The notes under the pieces were generated by a model. It did no database searches, was not told the origin of the DNA, and worked only from the letters and a program-made list of their open reading frames with translations. From a virus, in IMG/VR virus record IMGVR_UViG_3300010343_000004: a DNA stretch of 64,000 nucleotides. One strand, given 5' to 3'. The translations under genes were made by a program, and so were the position numbers. Of the stretch, positions 47,619 to 59,573 are shown in pieces (the stretch's first letter is position 1; each line of letters opens with the position of its first letter).

Positions 47619-48790
47619 GTAATCAACCCCGGCCTAAAGGCCGGAGCTTTGCAGATCAAGTCCATGGCTCACAACCACTTCAACCATGTCCGCGTACGGC
47701 CGGATTACTTCGGCCCGGCTCGCAATTACGCGAGCCGCGTTGACGTCGGCGTCCGCAGTGTGGCCGCACGAGAGGCACGCGAACACATCGCGAGTCTTGC
47801 GGTTGGCCTTCTCGGTGTGACCGCAGACGCGGCACTCTCGAGAAGTGTTTCGCGGGTCGACGTAGCAGATGGGGAGCCCTGCACGCGCGGCCTTGTAGAC
47901 AATCTTCGCCTGAAGGTCGCCGAAGGCCCACGAGTGAAGGACGCGTCGCTGAGACCTGGAAGCCCTTATCCGCGAGCGGATGCCGTCGAGGTTTTCGAGG
48001 GCGATGCCGCGCGAGGTGCGTTCGGCCGTAGCGACAATCTGCTTGCTGATGCAGTGATTCACGTGTGTCGAGAAGCGGCTCTCCTTGATACGCCGTTTGC
48101 GAAGCAGTCGCTTCGCGCTCTTGGTGCCCTTGGACTGGAGTCGTTGTCGGAGCTTGACGGCACGACGCCGGAGAGCGTTCAGGCTCGAGCCACTGAAGTT
48201 GTCACCGTCACTCGTCGTGGCGATGTTGACGATGCCCACGTCGACACCAAGCCAACCGAGGGTCTTCTTCTCCTCGGTGTCCAGCACCTCGACAGAGACG
48301 AAGAGGTAGAAATTCGAGTCTCGGAGAACCAGATCGGTCTCGCCCCGGTCGTAGCCGAGAAGTGTGCGTTGATGCTCGCCGCAGACGAATGGAATCACCT
48401 GACGGCCCGAAAGCGTCCAGAGATTCGCAGTGTCATCCTTCCAGGACAGGATGCGGGCGTCGTACGCGATCGAACCCAGCGGTCGAAAGCTCCGCTTCCT
48501 CTTCTTGTCGAGCTTGTAGGCGTCGGCCACCTTCGCCGTCGCGCGGACGATCATCTGCGAGGACAGATCGGGAAAAGCTGCTCGTGCAGCCACGTAGACG
48601 ATCTTGTGCAAGGCAAACTGCCGGAAGATCTGTTCGTCCCACGCTTTGGTGGAGATCCAGTCGCACGCCTCATTCGCGCGCCGCATCGTCACCGTGAGGG
48701 ACGCCGCCTGCTCGGCGGTCGGCTGAAGCTTCACTTGCACGACAAGCTTCACCACGGTGGTGTATCACACTCAAGACTTGAAGCAACACC
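47619..48790 (-). mobile_element. TnpB-only IS200/IS605-family (IS1341-like) element; ends approximate
   Basis: Right-end hairpin CCGGCCT-AA-AGGCCGG (47629-47644) overlapping the tnpB stop; no tnpA; inserted intergenically on the opposite strand. Confidence 0.75.
47634..48755 (-). CDS. tnpB: RNA-guided endonuclease TnpB
   Basis: RuvC GVDVG / IALENL / ADVNAA; Zn ribbon CRVCG...CLSCG; N-terminal HTH. Confidence 0.95.
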   Translation of the reverse strand: MVKLVVQVKLQPTAEQAASLTVTMRRANEACDWISTKAWDEQIFRQFALHKIVYVAARAAFPDLSSQMIVRATAKVADAYKLDKKRKRSFRPLGSIAYDARILSWKDDTANLWTLSGRQVIPFVCGEHQRTLLGYDRGETDLVLRDSNFYLFVSVEVLDTEEKKTLGWLGVDVGIVNIATTSDGDNFSGSSLNALRRRAVKLRQRLQSKGTKSAKRLLRKRRIKESRFSTHVNHCISKQIVATAERTSRGIALENLDGIRSRIRASRSQRRVLHSWAFGDLQAKIVYKAARAGLPICYVDPRNTSRECRVCGHTEKANRKTRDVFACLSCGHTADADVNAARVIASRAEVIRPYADMVEVVVSHGLDLQSSGL

Positions 48791-50206: not shown

Positions 50207-50341
50207 ATGAGCCCGCGGACCGTCACCATCCCGGCGAGCGTCGCCCTCTTCGGCTTAGGCTGGATGTGGGTCGGCTTCTGGCCGACGTTGGTGCTCACGG
50301 TCATCGCGCCAGCCCTCATCGAAGAGTGGGGCAATCCATGA
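50207..50341 (+). CDS. small membrane protein, paralogue of 51342-51551
   Basis: LFGLGWMWVGFWPTLVLTV. Confidence 0.65.
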   Translation: MSPRTVTIPASVALFGLGWMWVGFWPTLVLTVIAPALIEEWGNP

Positions 50342-51341: not shown

Positions 51342-51551
51342 ATGGACATTCCGACGACAGAAGCGACGTGGGAACTCGACCCCACGACCCGTACCGTGGT
51401 CCTCTTCGGCCTTGGCTGGGCGTGGATCGGCTTCTGGCCGTCGCTCTTTTTGACCGTCGTCGGCCCCGGGATCACCGCGAGGTACTGGAAAGGGAGCGAG
51501 TCCTCCCCCGCGTTCCAGCAGCGTGTACTCGAACTCTCGAGGGCGGCGTGA
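51342..51551 (+). CDS. small membrane protein, paralogue of 50207-50341
   Basis: LFGLGWAWIGFWPSLFLTV. Confidence 0.65.
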   Translation: MDIPTTEATWELDPTTRTVVLFGLGWAWIGFWPSLFLTVVGPGITARYWKGSESSPAFQQRVLELSRAA

Positions 51552-52102: not shown

Positions 52103-52375
52103 ATGATGCGTCGAAGCGCGAAGAGAATTGCCCATTCACTCGCTCGCCGTCCGGGCGTGGGCATCGGCAAGCTCCGGAGCATGCGAGGTGGAGCCTATTA
52201 CACGGTCGTCATCCCGTACGTGACGGTGGGCCGAACCGCATGGCATCCCACGGATCCCAGCTTTGCACCCATCACCCGGGGCGCGTTCAAGACGGCGAAG
52301 CTCGCCCGCGCGTGGGCCGTCAAGCATCTCGGACAGCACGCGCAGTTTGGCCTCCGAAAGTTCGAAGGAAGCTGA
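52103..52375 (+). CDS. leader-bearing small protein
   Basis: MMRRSAKRIAHSL. Confidence 0.7.
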   Translation: MMRRSAKRIAHSLARRPGVGIGKLRSMRGGAYYTVVIPYVTVGRTAWHPTDPSFAPITRGAFKTAKLARAWAVKHLGQHAQFGLRKFEGS

Positions 52376-52384
52376 GAAAAGACC

Positions 52385-52687
52385 ATGAGCGCGAATAGAG
52401 TCACGAACAAGCTCGCGCGCCGAAGGCGGGGCGCGTCCGAGCGGCTTTTCATCGGCGTCTACCCGACCGGGATCGTCTACGCTGACCGCTCGCGCGAGAA
52501 GCACGGTGACTACGCCCGCTGCGGGTTTCTTCCGTTCAGCACGCTCGTGCTGGAACTCAAGTCCGACTGTCCGAAGGCGCTCCGGGCGCTCATCGAGAAG
52601 GATGCCGCGCGCCTGCAGGCCCGACGCGGCGAGCAGTACCAGGTCTCGGCGAGCGGCCAGACCATCACCCTCGGACACGGACGATGA
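52385..52687 (+). CDS. leader-bearing small protein
   Basis: MSANRVTNKL; FIGVYPTGIVYADR...HGDY. Confidence 0.75.
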   Translation: MSANRVTNKLARRRRGASERLFIGVYPTGIVYADRSREKHGDYARCGFLPFSTLVLELKSDCPKALRALIEKDAARLQARRGEQYQVSASGQTITLGHGR

Positions 52688-53016
52688 CTGCGCGCGTCGT
52701 CGCAAAGAAGCTCGAGGACCGCCTCTTCCGCTACGCAGACGGAGTGATGACGGAGCGGCAATGGATCGAGCGGTACGCCGATCGACTCGAAGAGGCGCGC
52801 ACCATCGTGGAGGACTTCTACAACCGGCGGAAGTTTAGCAGCCTCGAAGGACGAGCACAGGACGAATACATGAAGAGGCTCCACGCGAAAGCGGGCAAGC
52901 CTGTCTACCGTGCGCATCGCCGTGGTGGGAGCTCCTTCCAGGAAGTCAGCAAGAAGAGCTTCGACTGGGCCGCCCACACCCTCGGCCTCCCGGTAACGTT
53001 CAAGGAGAGGTCATGA
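52684..53016 (+). CDS. leader-bearing small protein
   Basis: MTARVVAKKL. Confidence 0.75.
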   Translation: MTARVVAKKLEDRLFRYADGVMTERQWIERYADRLEEARTIVEDFYNRRKFSSLEGRAQDEYMKRLHAKAGKPVYRAHRRGGSSFQEVSKKSFDWAAHTLGLPVTFKERS

Positions 53017-53381
53017 GCGCGAAGAGAGTCACGAGCAAGCTCGCGAGTCGGTCACGCCACGTTGCGGGTCGGTCACCACGCCACGCGAAGACGAGGGCGG
53101 TCACCATCGTCGGCCGGAGGTGGTTCGACCGCGCCAACGGCAACACGTACTACTCGTCCGAGATCTACGTGAACGGCAAGTTTGTCCACAAGATCCCTTT
53201 CGCCTACGGCTACGGCTCGATGTACGAGCAGGACGCCGCGGAGTGGCTGATCGATCACGGGTACATCAAGGCCGAGAAGTACGCGAGCGGCGGGTACCCT
53301 CCGCTCTGGCAGCTCGCCGAGAAGCTGGGCTTTCACAAGGAGACGCCGGTCAGCGACGTCGCCCGGAAGAAGGACCTCTGA
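53013..53381 (+). CDS. leader-bearing small protein
   Basis: MSAKRVTSKL; GRRWFD..NGNTY...YGYG. Confidence 0.75.
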   Translation: MSAKRVTSKLASRSRHVAGRSPRHAKTRAVTIVGRRWFDRANGNTYYSSEIYVNGKFVHKIPFAYGYGSMYEQDAAEWLIDHGYIKAEKYASGGYPPLWQLAEKLGFHKETPVSDVARKKDL

Positions 53382-54153: not shown

Positions 54154-54630
54154 ATGCCGAGCTCCAGCGACATCGTCGACCGGCTGTCCTACGCCCGCGC
54201 TCACGCGAGCGCGTACGTCGCCGTCGAGTTCGACCTCGCGCTCGGCGAACGGACGGGCCGGCAGATGGTCTTCGACGCGGGCAGCATGAGCGAGGCCGCG
54301 CGAAAGCTCGCGTACACGCTGAACCTCTCCTCCTCCGGCTGGCGCGTCTCGCGGTCGGGCCGCACCGTCAGCAAGATGGAGGGAGACATCGGCTGGAACC
54401 TCGTCAAGGCAGAGTCCCCCGTCGCCAAAAACCTCGGCGAAGAGCACCGCGAGGAAGTGGCCAAGCAAGAGCGCGAGCAGCTCGAGGAGGTCCTCGGGGC
54501 GGAGGAGGCCGAGCCGCTCGAAGGCGAGGCCCACGAAGAGGACGAGCTCGAGGACGAGGACGAGGGCGAGGGCGAGGACGAGAGCGACGAAGAAGAGGAC
54601 GACGAAGACGAAGAAGAGGAGCGGACGTGA
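54154..54630 (+). CDS. leader-bearing protein with long acidic tail
   Basis: MPSSSDIVDRL; D/E-rich tail of about 45 aa. Confidence 0.75.
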   Translation: MPSSSDIVDRLSYARAHASAYVAVEFDLALGERTGRQMVFDAGSMSEAARKLAYTLNLSSSGWRVSRSGRTVSKMEGDIGWNLVKAESPVAKNLGEEHREEVAKQEREQLEEVLGAEEAEPLEGEAHEEDELEDEDEGEGEDESDEEEDDEDEEEERT

Positions 54631-55172
54631 TGGTGAGAAGCGCGAAGAAGGTCAGCCATCGCCTCGAACGCCGCTCGAAGATGACCGGCGTCGGCTCCTG
54701 GCGGACGTTTGCCGGCGGCGGCCGCGAGACGGCGTTCGAGGGGCGCGTCTACTCGATCAACCCACGCTTCGAGCCGCCCGGCCGGAGCGGAGGGTGGGCG
54801 CTCCGCGTGTCGCCCGGTCAAAGAGGCCTCCACGAGTGGATCGGCAAAGACGGTGGCCCCGAGACGGCCGGCTCCTTCCCGTTCACGACGCCCGCCCACG
54901 CAGCCCGTATGGCGGCGGCCTTCGCGAAGAGAGTCGGGCCAGAGCCGCACGGCATCATGGCCGGCTGGACCAAGACCGAGGACAAGATCACGGCCACCAT
55001 GCGCGAGCCTGACTTCTGGCACCGCGTCGAGAAGCTGAAAGACGAGGCGCAAGCGCAGGGTGACGCCGACATGGCGCGCATCTGCCGCGTCGCCATCTCC
55101 GAGCGTCCCGTCCGCCCGGAGGGGCACGACGCCCGCGAGTGCGCGCGGGCGCTCCTCCACGGTCAAGAGTAG
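54627..55172 (+). CDS. leader-bearing protein
   Basis: MMVRSAKKVSHRL. Confidence 0.75.
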   Translation: MMVRSAKKVSHRLERRSKMTGVGSWRTFAGGGRETAFEGRVYSINPRFEPPGRSGGWALRVSPGQRGLHEWIGKDGGPETAGSFPFTTPAHAARMAAAFAKRVGPEPHGIMAGWTKTEDKITATMREPDFWHRVEKLKDEAQAQGDADMARICRVAISERPVRPEGHDARECARALLHGQE

Positions 55173-55180
55173 GGGCTCTG

Positions 55181-55867
55181 ATGCCGACGACGTTCAAGCG
55201 CATCCAGCACGTCCTCGAGTCTCGCGCAGCCAACGCGCCCGGCGCGCCCGGACCGGAGGTCCTCGTCGGCGGCCTCGAAGTCGGGCGGACAGTCATTACC
55301 CGAGCGGGCCTCAAGATCCATCGCTACGCGGAGTCGCTCAAGGTCATCGACCTCACGAACGCTGGCAAGCGCGGCAAGAAGGTTCAAGAGATGCACGTCA
55401 CGGTCGGAACGTTCAACCGCGACAAGGTGAACGAAGTCTTGAAGGCCTTCACGATCGACATCCTGCCGCTCACGTTCGCGCAGGCCAAAAGGCATCTTGA
55501 AGAGGTCGTTGCCGGGCAGAAAGCCGCCGGTGATCTCGACGGCGTCCGGGCGAGCTACTTCACCCACCGCGGCATCGACGTAGAACCGCCCGAGACGCGT
55601 ATCGAAGTCGAAAGCAGCTTCGAGGGCGGCAACTCGGTCCGCGTAGAGGCTGGCCCGCACGACTTCCACGTCCGGAGCAGCTACGTCTTTCAGCCCGAAG
55701 GCAAGGCGCCGTTTGCTCAGGACACGAGCTACTGGTCCGCCAAGAAGGCGGACGGGGCCAAGTTTTTCGCGTGGGCGAAGAAGAACCTGTCCAAGCTCGA
55801 CGGCATGCGGATGGGCGACCTCATCGACGTGTGGCGACGTCTCGGCGTCCACTACGACTCGCACTAG
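55181..55867 (+). CDS. leader-bearing protein
   Basis: MPTTFKRIQHVL. Confidence 0.75.
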   Translation: MPTTFKRIQHVLESRAANAPGAPGPEVLVGGLEVGRTVITRAGLKIHRYAESLKVIDLTNAGKRGKKVQEMHVTVGTFNRDKVNEVLKAFTIDILPLTFAQAKRHLEEVVAGQKAAGDLDGVRASYFTHRGIDVEPPETRIEVESSFEGGNSVRVEAGPHDFHVRSSYVFQPEGKAPFAQDTSYWSAKKADGAKFFAWAKKNLSKLDGMRMGDLIDVWRRLGVHYDSH

Positions 55868-55980
55868 CTCGAGGGGTGCGAAGGGCTGAACCGCTCGAAG
55901 GCGAGGTCCTGAGCGAAGAGGCGACGAAAGACGAAGACGAAGAAGAGAGCGACGAAGACGAAGAAAAAGGAGTTGGCGTG

Positions 55981-56319
55981 ATGGCGAAAAGCGCGAAGAA
56001 GATCTCGGAGAAGCTGTCCACCCGCGGCACGAAGCGGTTCTCGGCCTACTGGCCAACCCTCGGCTCGGACAGGCTGCCCGAGGTAGACGACGCGGTCTTC
56101 GTCTCGAGGACGCTCGACACGTCGAGCGGCCGCGAGTTCTACGAGGCGAGGCTCACCCCCTGGAAGACCAACGTCTCGCACGAACCCAAGGTCCACGGCT
56201 GGCTCGGGGAGACGAACAACAAGAGCCGCACCGCGGTGGGCAAGGGCGTCGTCACGGCCATCGATCCGGACCGCGACGACGTGATCCGGTTCCGGTTCGT
56301 GAAGGGAGCAGCGTCGTGA
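55981..56319 (+). CDS. leader-bearing protein
   Basis: MAKSAKKISEKL. Confidence 0.75.
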   Translation: MAKSAKKISEKLSTRGTKRFSAYWPTLGSDRLPEVDDAVFVSRTLDTSSGREFYEARLTPWKTNVSHEPKVHGWLGETNNKSRTAVGKGVVTAIDPDRDDVIRFRFVKGAAS

Positions 56320-56383: not shown

Positions 56384-56517
56384 CGCGCGCATGTCCACTA
56401 ATCCGTCTCTCGCTTGGCATACCCCGTGCGAGGTCGGGGCATCTCGGCCTCACGCACCAGCCGTTCGACCATGCCACTGCGGGTCTCGCCGCAACGCGTC
56501 GCCATCTCGTCGAGGCG
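56384..56517. repeat. 134-bp direct repeat, copy 1
   Basis: Matches 57579-57712 with 3 mismatches. Confidence 0.9.
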
Positions 56518-56613
56518 GGCAATCGCGTCGGGGGAGAGCGAGACGTGTACGAGGGGGCGCTTGCGCTTGACCAAGCCGGCGGACCGTCTGCGGCTGGCAT
56601 CGTCAATAATCAT
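56398..56613 (-). CDS. CopG/RHH regulator
   Basis: VHVSLSPDAIARLDEMA...ETRSGMVERLVRE. Confidence 0.75.
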   Translation of the reverse strand: MIIDDASRRRSAGLVKRKRPLVHVSLSPDAIARLDEMATRCGETRSGMVERLVREAEMPRPRTGYAKRETD

Positions 56614-56978: not shown

Positions 56979-57070
56979 CCGGCCCTATTTGCATCGTCCA
57001 CATGGGTTGACGAATGCCCCCCATCATTCCAGAGCACGCCAACCCTCAAGGTGTCGATGGTCGTCCTCAT
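56942..57070 (-). CDS. small protein, probably translated from a leaderless mRNA
   Basis: ATG lies 7 nt after TACAAT. Confidence 0.5.
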   Translation of the reverse strand: MRTTIDTLRVGVLWNDGGHSSTHVDDANRAGWSKVVECFRSH

Positions 57071-57077
57071 GCCCATC

Positions 57078-57105
57078 ATTGTAGCCACACTGCGGCTACA
57101 GTCAA
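57078..57105 (-). promoter_or_regulatory. sigma70 promoter with operator palindrome, copy 1
   Basis: TTGACT-16 nt-TACAAT; TGTAGCC-N7-GGCTACA. Confidence 0.8.
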
Positions 57106-57284
57106 GAGGTAGCCGAAACTTTTTTCTCGAGCGCCACACGCACAGCCTCGCGCCCTGGACATTCACCCGCGCGCATGGTGACACGACCATCCGGCCAATG
57201 GTAGGTCAGCGACCCGGTAACGCGAGCCCCGGAGCGCATCAGGCCGCAGGTCTTACACGTCTCGTGGTACCAAGAATGTTTCAT
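57102..57284 (-). CDS. small Cys/His protein
   Basis: Coupled start; CKTCG. Confidence 0.55.
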   Translation of the reverse strand: MKHSWYHETCKTCGLMRSGARVTGSLTYHWPDGRVTMRAGECPGREAVRVALEKKVSATS

Positions 57285-57502
57285 ATGAACGAGCCGATAC
57301 GGACGAGTTGCGACTTCTGGAAGCGTCCGACTTCAGGGTCGCCGACCTCAGGTCTTGTAAGCCGAACATGCACCCATTCATGGCCTACGTGCCACACAAG
57401 TCCGAGTCCAACACCCAACACGCGGACATGGTCGAGGGGGCGAAAGCCGCGGGCATTGGGCGCACACGAGAGCGGCGCCTCGGCTCGGTTGTTTTTGCTC
57501 AT
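57281..57502 (-). CDS. small protein, probably translated from a leaderless mRNA
   Basis: ATG lies 7 nt after TACAAT. Confidence 0.55.
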   Translation of the reverse strand: MSKNNRAEAPLSCAPNARGFRPLDHVRVLGVGLGLVWHVGHEWVHVRLTRPEVGDPEVGRFQKSQLVRIGSFI

Positions 57503-57509
57503 GTCCGTC

Positions 57510-57537
57510 ATTGTAGCCGCAGTGTGGCTACAGTCAA
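57510..57537 (-). promoter_or_regulatory. sigma70 promoter with operator palindrome, copy 2
   Basis: TTGACT-16 nt-TACAAT; 7-nt core is the reverse complement of copy 1. Confidence 0.8.
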
Positions 57538-57578
57538 GTGGTAGCCGAAACTTTTTCTCGACCGCTGCACTTCTCTGG

Positions 57579-57712
57579 CGCGCGCATGTCCACTAATCCG
57601 TCTCTCGCTTGGCATACCCCGTGCGAGGTCGGGGCATCTCGGCCTCACGCACCAGCCGTTCGACCATGCCACTGCGGGTCTCGTCGCAACGCGTCGCCAT
57701 GTGGTCGAGGCG
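57579..57712. repeat. 134-bp direct repeat, copy 2
   Basis: Matches 56384-56517. Confidence 0.9.
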
Positions 57713-57739
57713 AGCAGTTGAGGCTACGGCGTTGCGCAT
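57593..57739 (-). pseudogene. truncated copy of the RHH regulator lacking its beta-strand
   Basis: MRNAVASTARLDHMATRCDETRSGMVERLVRE... Confidence 0.5.
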
Positions 57740-58786: not shown

Positions 58787-59163
58787 TGCGCTCCTCCGGA
58801 CGGCGCACCGCGAAGACGGTGGCGAAGAAGCTCGCGACACGCGGGACGAAGAAGACGAAGGCCGCTGCGAAGAAGCGTGGTCTCAAGATGGTCTACTGCG
58901 CGCCCGAGAGCTTCGCGATGACGGGTCTGCCGCGCGGCGAGAAGATCTCGCTCGACTGGGACGAGCCCGCGCAAGAGTGGAAGGCGACGGTCGGCGGCAT
59001 CATCCACCGCATGCCGACGTTCTTTCTGTCGCCGAAGACCGCCAAGAAAGAACCGAAACGCTTCGCCATGGAGGCGCTCTCGCACCTCGAACGAGTCATG
59101 ATGGCGGGACCTCGCCCCGCGCACGAGCAGAAGGGACCTCTCGCCATCGGAGTGCGGACATGA
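58786..59163 (+). CDS. leader-bearing protein
   Basis: MRSSGRRTAKTVAKKL. Confidence 0.75.
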   Translation: MRSSGRRTAKTVAKKLATRGTKKTKAAAKKRGLKMVYCAPESFAMTGLPRGEKISLDWDEPAQEWKATVGGIIHRMPTFFLSPKTAKKEPKRFAMEALSHLERVMMAGPRPAHEQKGPLAIGVRT

Positions 59164-59423: not shown

Positions 59424-59573
59424 ATGCCCACGAGCCGCCATCTCGCGAAGAAGCTCGCCGCGCGCCGCCGTTACGCAGCCATCGGCGTCACCGCTTCCGA
59501 GCTCCGCCGACGTCTGCGTCAGGGCGAGAGCGTCCTCGACGTCGCGCAATACCCTGGAGACAAACCACGATGA
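59424..59573 (+). CDS. leader-bearing 49-aa protein (not in track)
   Basis: MPTSRHLAKKL. Confidence 0.65.
   Translation: MPTSRHLAKKLAARRRYAAIGVTASELRRRLRQGESVLDVAQYPGDKPR

Follow-up and report, generated by a model that had tools for sequence, protein, structure and literature searches.

The DNA analysed here is a stretch of 64,000 nucleotides from a virus (IMG/VR record IMGVR_UViG_3300010343_000004), called the window in what follows. Its G+C content is 65%, and among its genes are those for a protein-primed family-B polymerase, for a ribonucleotide reductase with an intein and for several proteins that bind peptidoglycan. About 30 small genes form an array on the + strand at about 46.7-63.0 kb, each with a basic leader peptide at its N-terminus that follows the pattern [ST]-A-[KR]-x-[VI]-x-x-[KR]-L-x-x-R. 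Once the first 22 residues are cut, the bodies of these proteins are pairwise dissimilar (BLASTP, best E = 0.06). The spacing is tight, with spacers from -4 to 26 nt and frequent ATGA or TGATG overlaps. The leader bears a resemblance to the N-terminus of lambda O and might conceivably act as an N-terminal degradation tag of the ClpX type. Two further small genes with a leader, at 52103-52375 and 59424-59573, escape the simple pattern and occupy apparent long spacers. The second of them encodes 49 aa and is ATGA-coupled to the next gene, and its local leader is followed by A-R-R-R-Y-A-A, which resembles the leader variant of related viruses. Two small membrane-peptide genes without a leader (50207-50341 and 51342-51551) lie 1.15 kb apart in the array; they are paralogues with the core LFGLGW.W.GFWP. 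The position of each after a leader gene suggests that two genes were duplicated together within the array at an earlier time.

The present study concerns four consecutive genes of this array, named A to D, and the two junctions A/B and C/D (Table 1). The spacer between C and D is 113 nt long and is among the few long ones in the array. A near-identical strain variant of B, P0023, reads through B's TAG and stops three codons further on, at a TGA that overlaps the ATG of C (TGATG; 55170-55183), and the B of the window thus stops slightly earlier than that of the P0023 strain. No match to A, B, C or D was found in Pfam or PHROGs. Scans of IMG/VR with A, B and D and with the alignments of A and B gave no match, nor did scans of GTDB genomes with the alignments of C and B, and a metagenome scan for the A alignment yielded just two short contigs. 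For D no homologue except itself was obtained. Relatives of C are encoded at 18 IMG/VR loci, and the viral contigs in which the family occurs are very large (up to 529 kb); in INPHARED there is a single weak match to C, in an unannotated 485-kb uncultured phage.

Table 1. Genes A to D and the two copies of the repeated junction (positions in the window).
Feature	Position	Strand	Description
Gene A	54154-54630	+	158 aa; leader degenerate, body small and conserved, acidic (D/E) tail of about 45 residues; GC3 of the ORF 0.89
Copy 1	54479-54653	+	last 150 nt of A (acidic tail), junction, first 7-8 codons of B
SD of copy 1	54616-54621	+	GAGGAG; part of copy 1
Stop/start overlap of copy 1	54628-54632	+	TGATG; part of copy 1
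Gene B	54630-55172	+	180 aa, leader-bearing; ATG overlaps the TGA of A
Gene C	55181-55867	+	228 aa; C-terminus ..YDSH, the conserved end of the family
Copy 2	55866-56004	+	between C and D; A-type acidic tail and junction (putative relic), SD of D, first codons of D
Upstream part of copy 2	55866-55980	+	putative relic
SD of D	55967-55972	+	AAGGAG, 8 nt before the ATG at 55981
Gene D	55981-56319	+	112 aa, leader-bearing; first 7-8 codons (55981-56004) within copy 2; GC3 of the body 0.93

A comparison of the two junctions shows that the end of A, together with the start of B, recurs between C and D. In a global alignment 119 of the 137 aligned bases are identical (87%), with six indels, and the junction block is the third strongest internal repeat in a self-blastn of the region 44-64 kb (E = 2.6e-15). 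The blocks follow each other in the same order in both copies, namely the EPLEGE codons, the acidic run, the SD (8 nt ahead of the start codon), GTGATGG and the opening codons of the leader. In the whole 64 kb, the 19-mer that codes for EPLEGE is present at these two sites only, even if three mismatches are allowed. When the 140-nt stretches that precede leaders are compared in 276 pairs, the A/B-C/D pair scores 25 and the next best 13.5 (mean 8.4, sd 1.7), so that it stands about 10 sd above the 275 other junction pairs. None of 2000 codon shuffles of copy 2 matched the observed score. The unique 19-mer, the shuffles and the outlying pair score argue that the similarity is neither a chance product of low-complexity GAN repeats nor an effect of the shared leader alone, and they support a common ancestry of the two junctions at the DNA level. 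The first-pass annotation, made by a model from the sequence without database searches, had reported that 54511-54650 is mirrored at 55888-56000; this repeat is confirmed, with homology that reaches slightly further at both sites (Table 1).

The right edge of the homology lies inside the leader. As far as codon 8 the leaders of B and D agree in 22 of 24 nt, after which the agreement falls to 9 of 24, and their DNA begins to diverge after codon 7 (...SAKK), in mid-leader and not right after the leader as first annotated. The second halves of the two leaders are alike at the protein level only. The right breakpoint is held by AGCGCGAAGAAG, the longest run of identity within the leader DNA. To be noted, the second half of the D leader is unlike that of B and finds its best match in the leader at 59160 (24 of 27 nt). 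D therefore had a leader of its own beforehand, and the crossover lies between two leaders, in their longest shared run. The position of this edge supports the view that leader-coding DNA served as a crossover site at least once. At the left edge, a 9-nt microhomology, AGCTCGAGG, is found in both copies and overlaps the TAG of C in copy 2. This edge is less certain, with a poor alignment just inside it and a microhomology that contains CTCGAG, a common motif in this genome.

Copy 1 is the working copy and lies in an intact and conserved frame. The tail of A is retained in P0025, a protein 71% identical to A, including EPLEG and the terminal ..ERT, and its GC3 is 0.82. In contrast, P0024, from a near-identical strain, carries an in-frame deletion of 33 residues in the tail, and the tail is absent from the more distant homologues P0026, P0027 and P0039. 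Judged from this distribution, the tail is a genuine part of A, though one prone to indels, and it predates the split from P0025.

Copy 2 presents a different picture. All 17 proteins of the C family that were found terminate at ..YDSH, the position of C's stop, so that the acidic stretch has no gene of its own, as the earlier annotation had stated, and the possibility that it is the lost tail of C itself was ruled out by the same conserved C-terminus. The GC3 of the stretch is 0.57 in the frame of D, compared with 0.82 in the A tail and 0.93 in the D body, and its overall G+C is 0.55 versus 0.66. The differences between the copies comprise 13 changes from GC to AT and 4 from AT to GC. One of the six indels is an insertion of 1 nt near the end of the stretch, which puts the former stop codon in another frame. 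In 55866-55980 neither a promoter nor a terminator was detected, Rfam gave no match and the predicted fold was not stable (z = +1.0), and a role of this part as RNA element, promoter or terminator was rejected. Nearly identical strains on record carry the same stretch. By these features the upstream part of copy 2 is a non-coding, decaying relic of an A-type tail and junction. With homology at the DNA level, an intact copy 1 and a decayed copy 2, it has all three marks of a pseudogenised fragment left by a segmental DNA copy.

We propose that 55866-56004 is probably a recombination scar, in which about 175 nt of the A/B junction was copied to the C/D junction. The copied DNA would comprise the acidic 3' end of A, the SD site, the overlapping stop and start codons and the first seven codons of the B leader. 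On the right, the exchange would be anchored by the short identity of two pre-existing leaders (AGCGCGAAGAAG), and on the left it would be joined by the microhomology AGCTCGAGG at the stop of C. The data show the homology with its edges, whether each copy is coding, and the selection on the leader as a peptide; that copying ran from A/B to C/D, how many events took place and how the DNA was repaired are inferred from the present arrangement. The most economical course would be ectopic gene conversion or template switching in a single event. It would begin with a break or a stalled end in the leader of D that pairs with the leader of B on a sister genome, and copying would then run leftward via the junction into the tail of A and end with rejoining beside C. 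An equivalent route would be a tandem duplication of the block tail-B-C followed by a leader-to-leader deletion. In either case the tail part would now be untranslated and decaying, while the last approximately 40 nt would serve as the ribosome-binding site, the start codon and the first half of the leader of D. Because the bodies of B and D are unrelated, every scenario requires a breakpoint inside the leader. For the same reason B and D themselves were ruled out as diverged duplicates, their bodies showing no similarity.

This result bears on two further claims of the first-pass annotation, that recombination at leader DNA swaps cargo bodies and that the duplication is a trace of how the leader array grows. 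The former stands in so far as a crossover or template switch at the leader would have joined the junction to a different body. It is not supported in so far as one patch suffices without any cargo being added or swapped. Since a single gene-conversion-like patch explains the scar without gene gain, growth of the array is not demonstrated by it.

Growth of the array would be recorded if the relic were what is left of a whole second A gene. In this case an older duplication would have given the order A1-B-C-A2-D, with the body of A2 deleted later. The membrane-peptide paralogues are another local duplication in the array, leader similarity is slightly higher between neighbours than between distant genes (p about 0.03), and the tail of A is indel-prone, with the 33 residues missing in P0024 as an example. 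However, this course would take at least two events, and the unrelated bodies of B and D would still call for the leader breakpoint. In addition, there is no trace of an A body upstream of the relic, and the deletion must finish exactly at the stop of C. We regard a second A gene as possible but unlikely.

The donor may also have been a related virus rather than the same genome. D together with its upstream junction could have been imported from a virus in which an A-like gene directly preceded D, so that the relic would be the tail of the donor's A with an illegitimate joint on the left. Gene order around A varies among relatives, D is without a homologue on record, and the 13% divergence between the copies would be compatible with a diverged donor. 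Against this, the codon usage of D is fully native (GC3 0.93) and a donor is not known. The relic also shares ESDE with the A of the window and not with P0025, the one diverged A tail on record, which weakly favours an event within this genome after the split from P0025. An import of D is thus quite improbable in our judgement.

Automatic gene calls read the locus differently. Three public sources agree in fusing the relic to D as a protein of 147 aa that starts at the GTG at 55876, and the relic does keep an open frame from this position into D, which is a counterpoint to its reading as a scar. The acidic stretch would then be a genuine N-terminal extension of D, that is, an acidic pro-segment in front of an internal leader. 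But GC3 falls from 0.93 in D to 0.57 in the extension, and an open frame is weak evidence in T-poor GAN repeats. The GTG has no SD at a usable distance while a strong SD lies 8 nt before the ATG at 55981, and the leader is N-terminal in all other genes of the array. A genuine extension therefore seems very improbable; we read the 147-aa protein as an over-extension, and the public mis-annotation would be corrected to a D of 112 aa. Finally, GAN-rich repeats align readily and the leaders all resemble each other, yet with a non-repetitive 19-mer confined to both sites, no codon shuffle out of 2000 at the observed score, a pair score about 10 sd above the 275 others and an identical block order, chance or convergence of two acidic low-complexity stretches beside a shared leader can practically be dismissed.

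If the scar results from copying of leader DNA, the question is how widely leaders exchange DNA. In our codon test 25 leaders were aligned, giving 1529 cell pairs with the same residue, and the expectation was taken from the codon usage of the window. Identical codons were found in 767 pairs versus 684 expected, and the choice between AGY and TCN codons for serine was near random (73 versus 70.5). The mean identity over the 30-nt leader core is 54%, with exact runs of about 12 nt, which is below the conservation that frequent homologous exchange would need. The near-random synonymous codons argue that DNA exchange from leader to leader is rare and is not a running shuffling system, and a general homogenisation of the leaders at the DNA level was rejected on the same grounds. 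Selection thus maintains the leader as a peptide, and the majority of the copies are old. Exceptions to the near-random codons are the B/D pair and the pair of leaders at 52385 and 53013. In the latter (52380-52417 and 53008-53045), 36 of 38 nt are identical, including a rare AGA codon, while the flanks are unrelated. It is possible that these two leaders represent a second DNA-level copy or a conversion patch. With such short exact runs, infrequent events that depend on microhomology are a better fit than a linker system that works efficiently.

Among relatives, the readable context is limited to the surroundings of A in two short and distant contigs, L019 and L020. L019, a metagenome contig of 1249 bp, encodes a tail-less A that is ATGA-coupled to an unrelated gene, and the neighbours of A in L019 have no match in the window. 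Five of the six tiny genes in these 1.25 kb begin with M-K-x-x-x-L-R-R-R-Y-G-R-A, which differs from the leader of the window, and the A homologue itself carries this RRRYG-type variant instead of the window leader. In L020, the gene after A begins with MVR and contains W-R-..-T-F-A; it is faintly B-like and too short to judge. Two proteins related to B carry the RRRYG variant as well. P0028 is 56% identical to B from residue 15 on, and in P0030 the variant is followed by an unrelated segment and then by the last 44 residues of B at 68% identity. The homologues of C in very large IMG/VR contigs begin with L-A-x-R-V-A-x-R-[FY]. In a 78-kb IMG/VR contig (L001, 8527-10591), the C homologue and the gene two upstream both begin with x-[IL]-A-[EQ]-[KR]-V-A-[KR]-R-F. 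The first-pass annotation had named a fixed gene order and congruent leader and body trees in relatives as the finding that would speak against cassette shuffling. What is observed differs from this, as the gene order around A is another one in L019 and L020, and different leader variants stand on the homologues of A, B and C in other viruses.

On orthologous bodies, each virus lineage thus appears to use a leader variant of its own. Common to the variants is the core hydrophobic-x-x-[KR]-[LFY], whose spacing to the body is almost constant, and in the window both the local motif and an RRRY-like motif are present in A and in the gene at 59424. Given the shared core and the near-constant spacing, tag swapping would explain the variants no better than co-evolution in place with a common partner. 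The other tag variants on the homologues of A, B and C would fit a tag that co-evolves with a partner encoded by the virus or by the host.

The arrangement can be compared with known systems in which small genes are exchanged. In T4-type phages, the PeSLs are conserved motifs that flank small accessory genes and act as preferred recombination sites (Arbiol et al. 2010, PMC2839356). They are non-coding cassettes of a promoter and a stem-loop, about 100 bp long and conserved as DNA (PMC2839356). The array resembles the PeSL case and Botstein's 'linker' model in that a short motif occurs at many small non-essential genes, a breakpoint falls in the motif and the joined cassette gains expression signals. 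Here the short N-terminal peptide is common to about 30 genes for unrelated small proteins, and the breakpoint in the repeated motif is the right edge after codon 7, with 52385/53013 as a weaker second case. Unlike the PeSL, the motif is a coding leader of 9-12 residues whose conservation is at the peptide level; its DNA is only about 54% identical, exact runs measure about 12 nt, and a single firm event is seen here.

A second comparison is offered by the T-even phages, whose diverse internal proteins have only the capsid targeting sequence (CTS) in common, as reviewed in PMC3012670 and PMC12373910, which both cite Repoila et al. 1994. The array and the CTS genes are alike in having unrelated small proteins with one short N-terminal signal and a gene set that is variable between related phages. 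The leader sequence is unrelated to the CTS, however, and the present virus encodes a protein-primed polymerase. In the T-even phages, the CTS-coding DNA mediates recombination. For orphan Rhs/CDI toxin cassettes it was shown experimentally that duplication, followed by homologous recombination in a shared coding stretch, yields chimeras (Koskiniemi et al. 2014, PMC3967940). Like the Rhs orphans, the scar places an upstream conserved coding fragment before a different body, and the two-step logic is that of the duplication-plus-deletion route given above. The shared region in Rhs is 522 bp at 95% identity on the C-terminal side of a huge gene, with cassettes that are toxin/immunity pairs (PMC3967940), whereas in the present case the shared run measures about 12-24 nt and lies at the N-terminal end of small genes.

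Ectopic gene conversion and homology-facilitated illegitimate recombination place one end on a short homology and the other at a microhomology, and leave a patch of 100-200 nt. Nothing specific separates the scar from this class, to which we assign it. Taken alone, the scar would be ordinary ectopic recombination, and its value lies in the evidence that it gives on an unusual array of about 30 unrelated genes with one tag. The difference from the known events lies in the recombination site, a coding tag whose conservation is that of a peptide and whose exact runs measure only about 12 nt. The scar suggests that the tag and its translation signals can be copied as DNA between gene junctions with a crossover inside the tag. 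The codon test shows such copying to be the exception, the tag being otherwise kept as a peptide. A broader proposal is that the leader DNA and the coupled stop/start junction form a built-in linker for exchanging, capturing and re-tagging small cargo genes in this lineage of large protein-primed soil viruses, similar to integrons or PeSLs but with a coding tag as the site. We offer this only as a speculation that is rather unlikely to hold. If it were true, the scar at 55.9 kb would be the first caught intermediate, and the leader variants on orthologues would derive in part from re-tagging.

The array is broken up by a block of minus-strand genes at 56.3-58.4 kb, which contains two repeats of its own. 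The longer one (56384-56521 and 57579-57716) is 138 nt at 97% identity and takes in the 3' ends of two ORFs with a common C-terminus, one of which is a ribbon-helix-helix gene (Pfam RHH_1). The shorter one (57066-57134 and 57498-57565) is 69 nt at 88% identity and holds twin sigma-70-like promoters. Within the leader array, a TnpB-type gene with the Pfam domain OrfB_IS605 and a Cas12f1-like TNB domain lies antisense at 47634-48755 on the minus strand.
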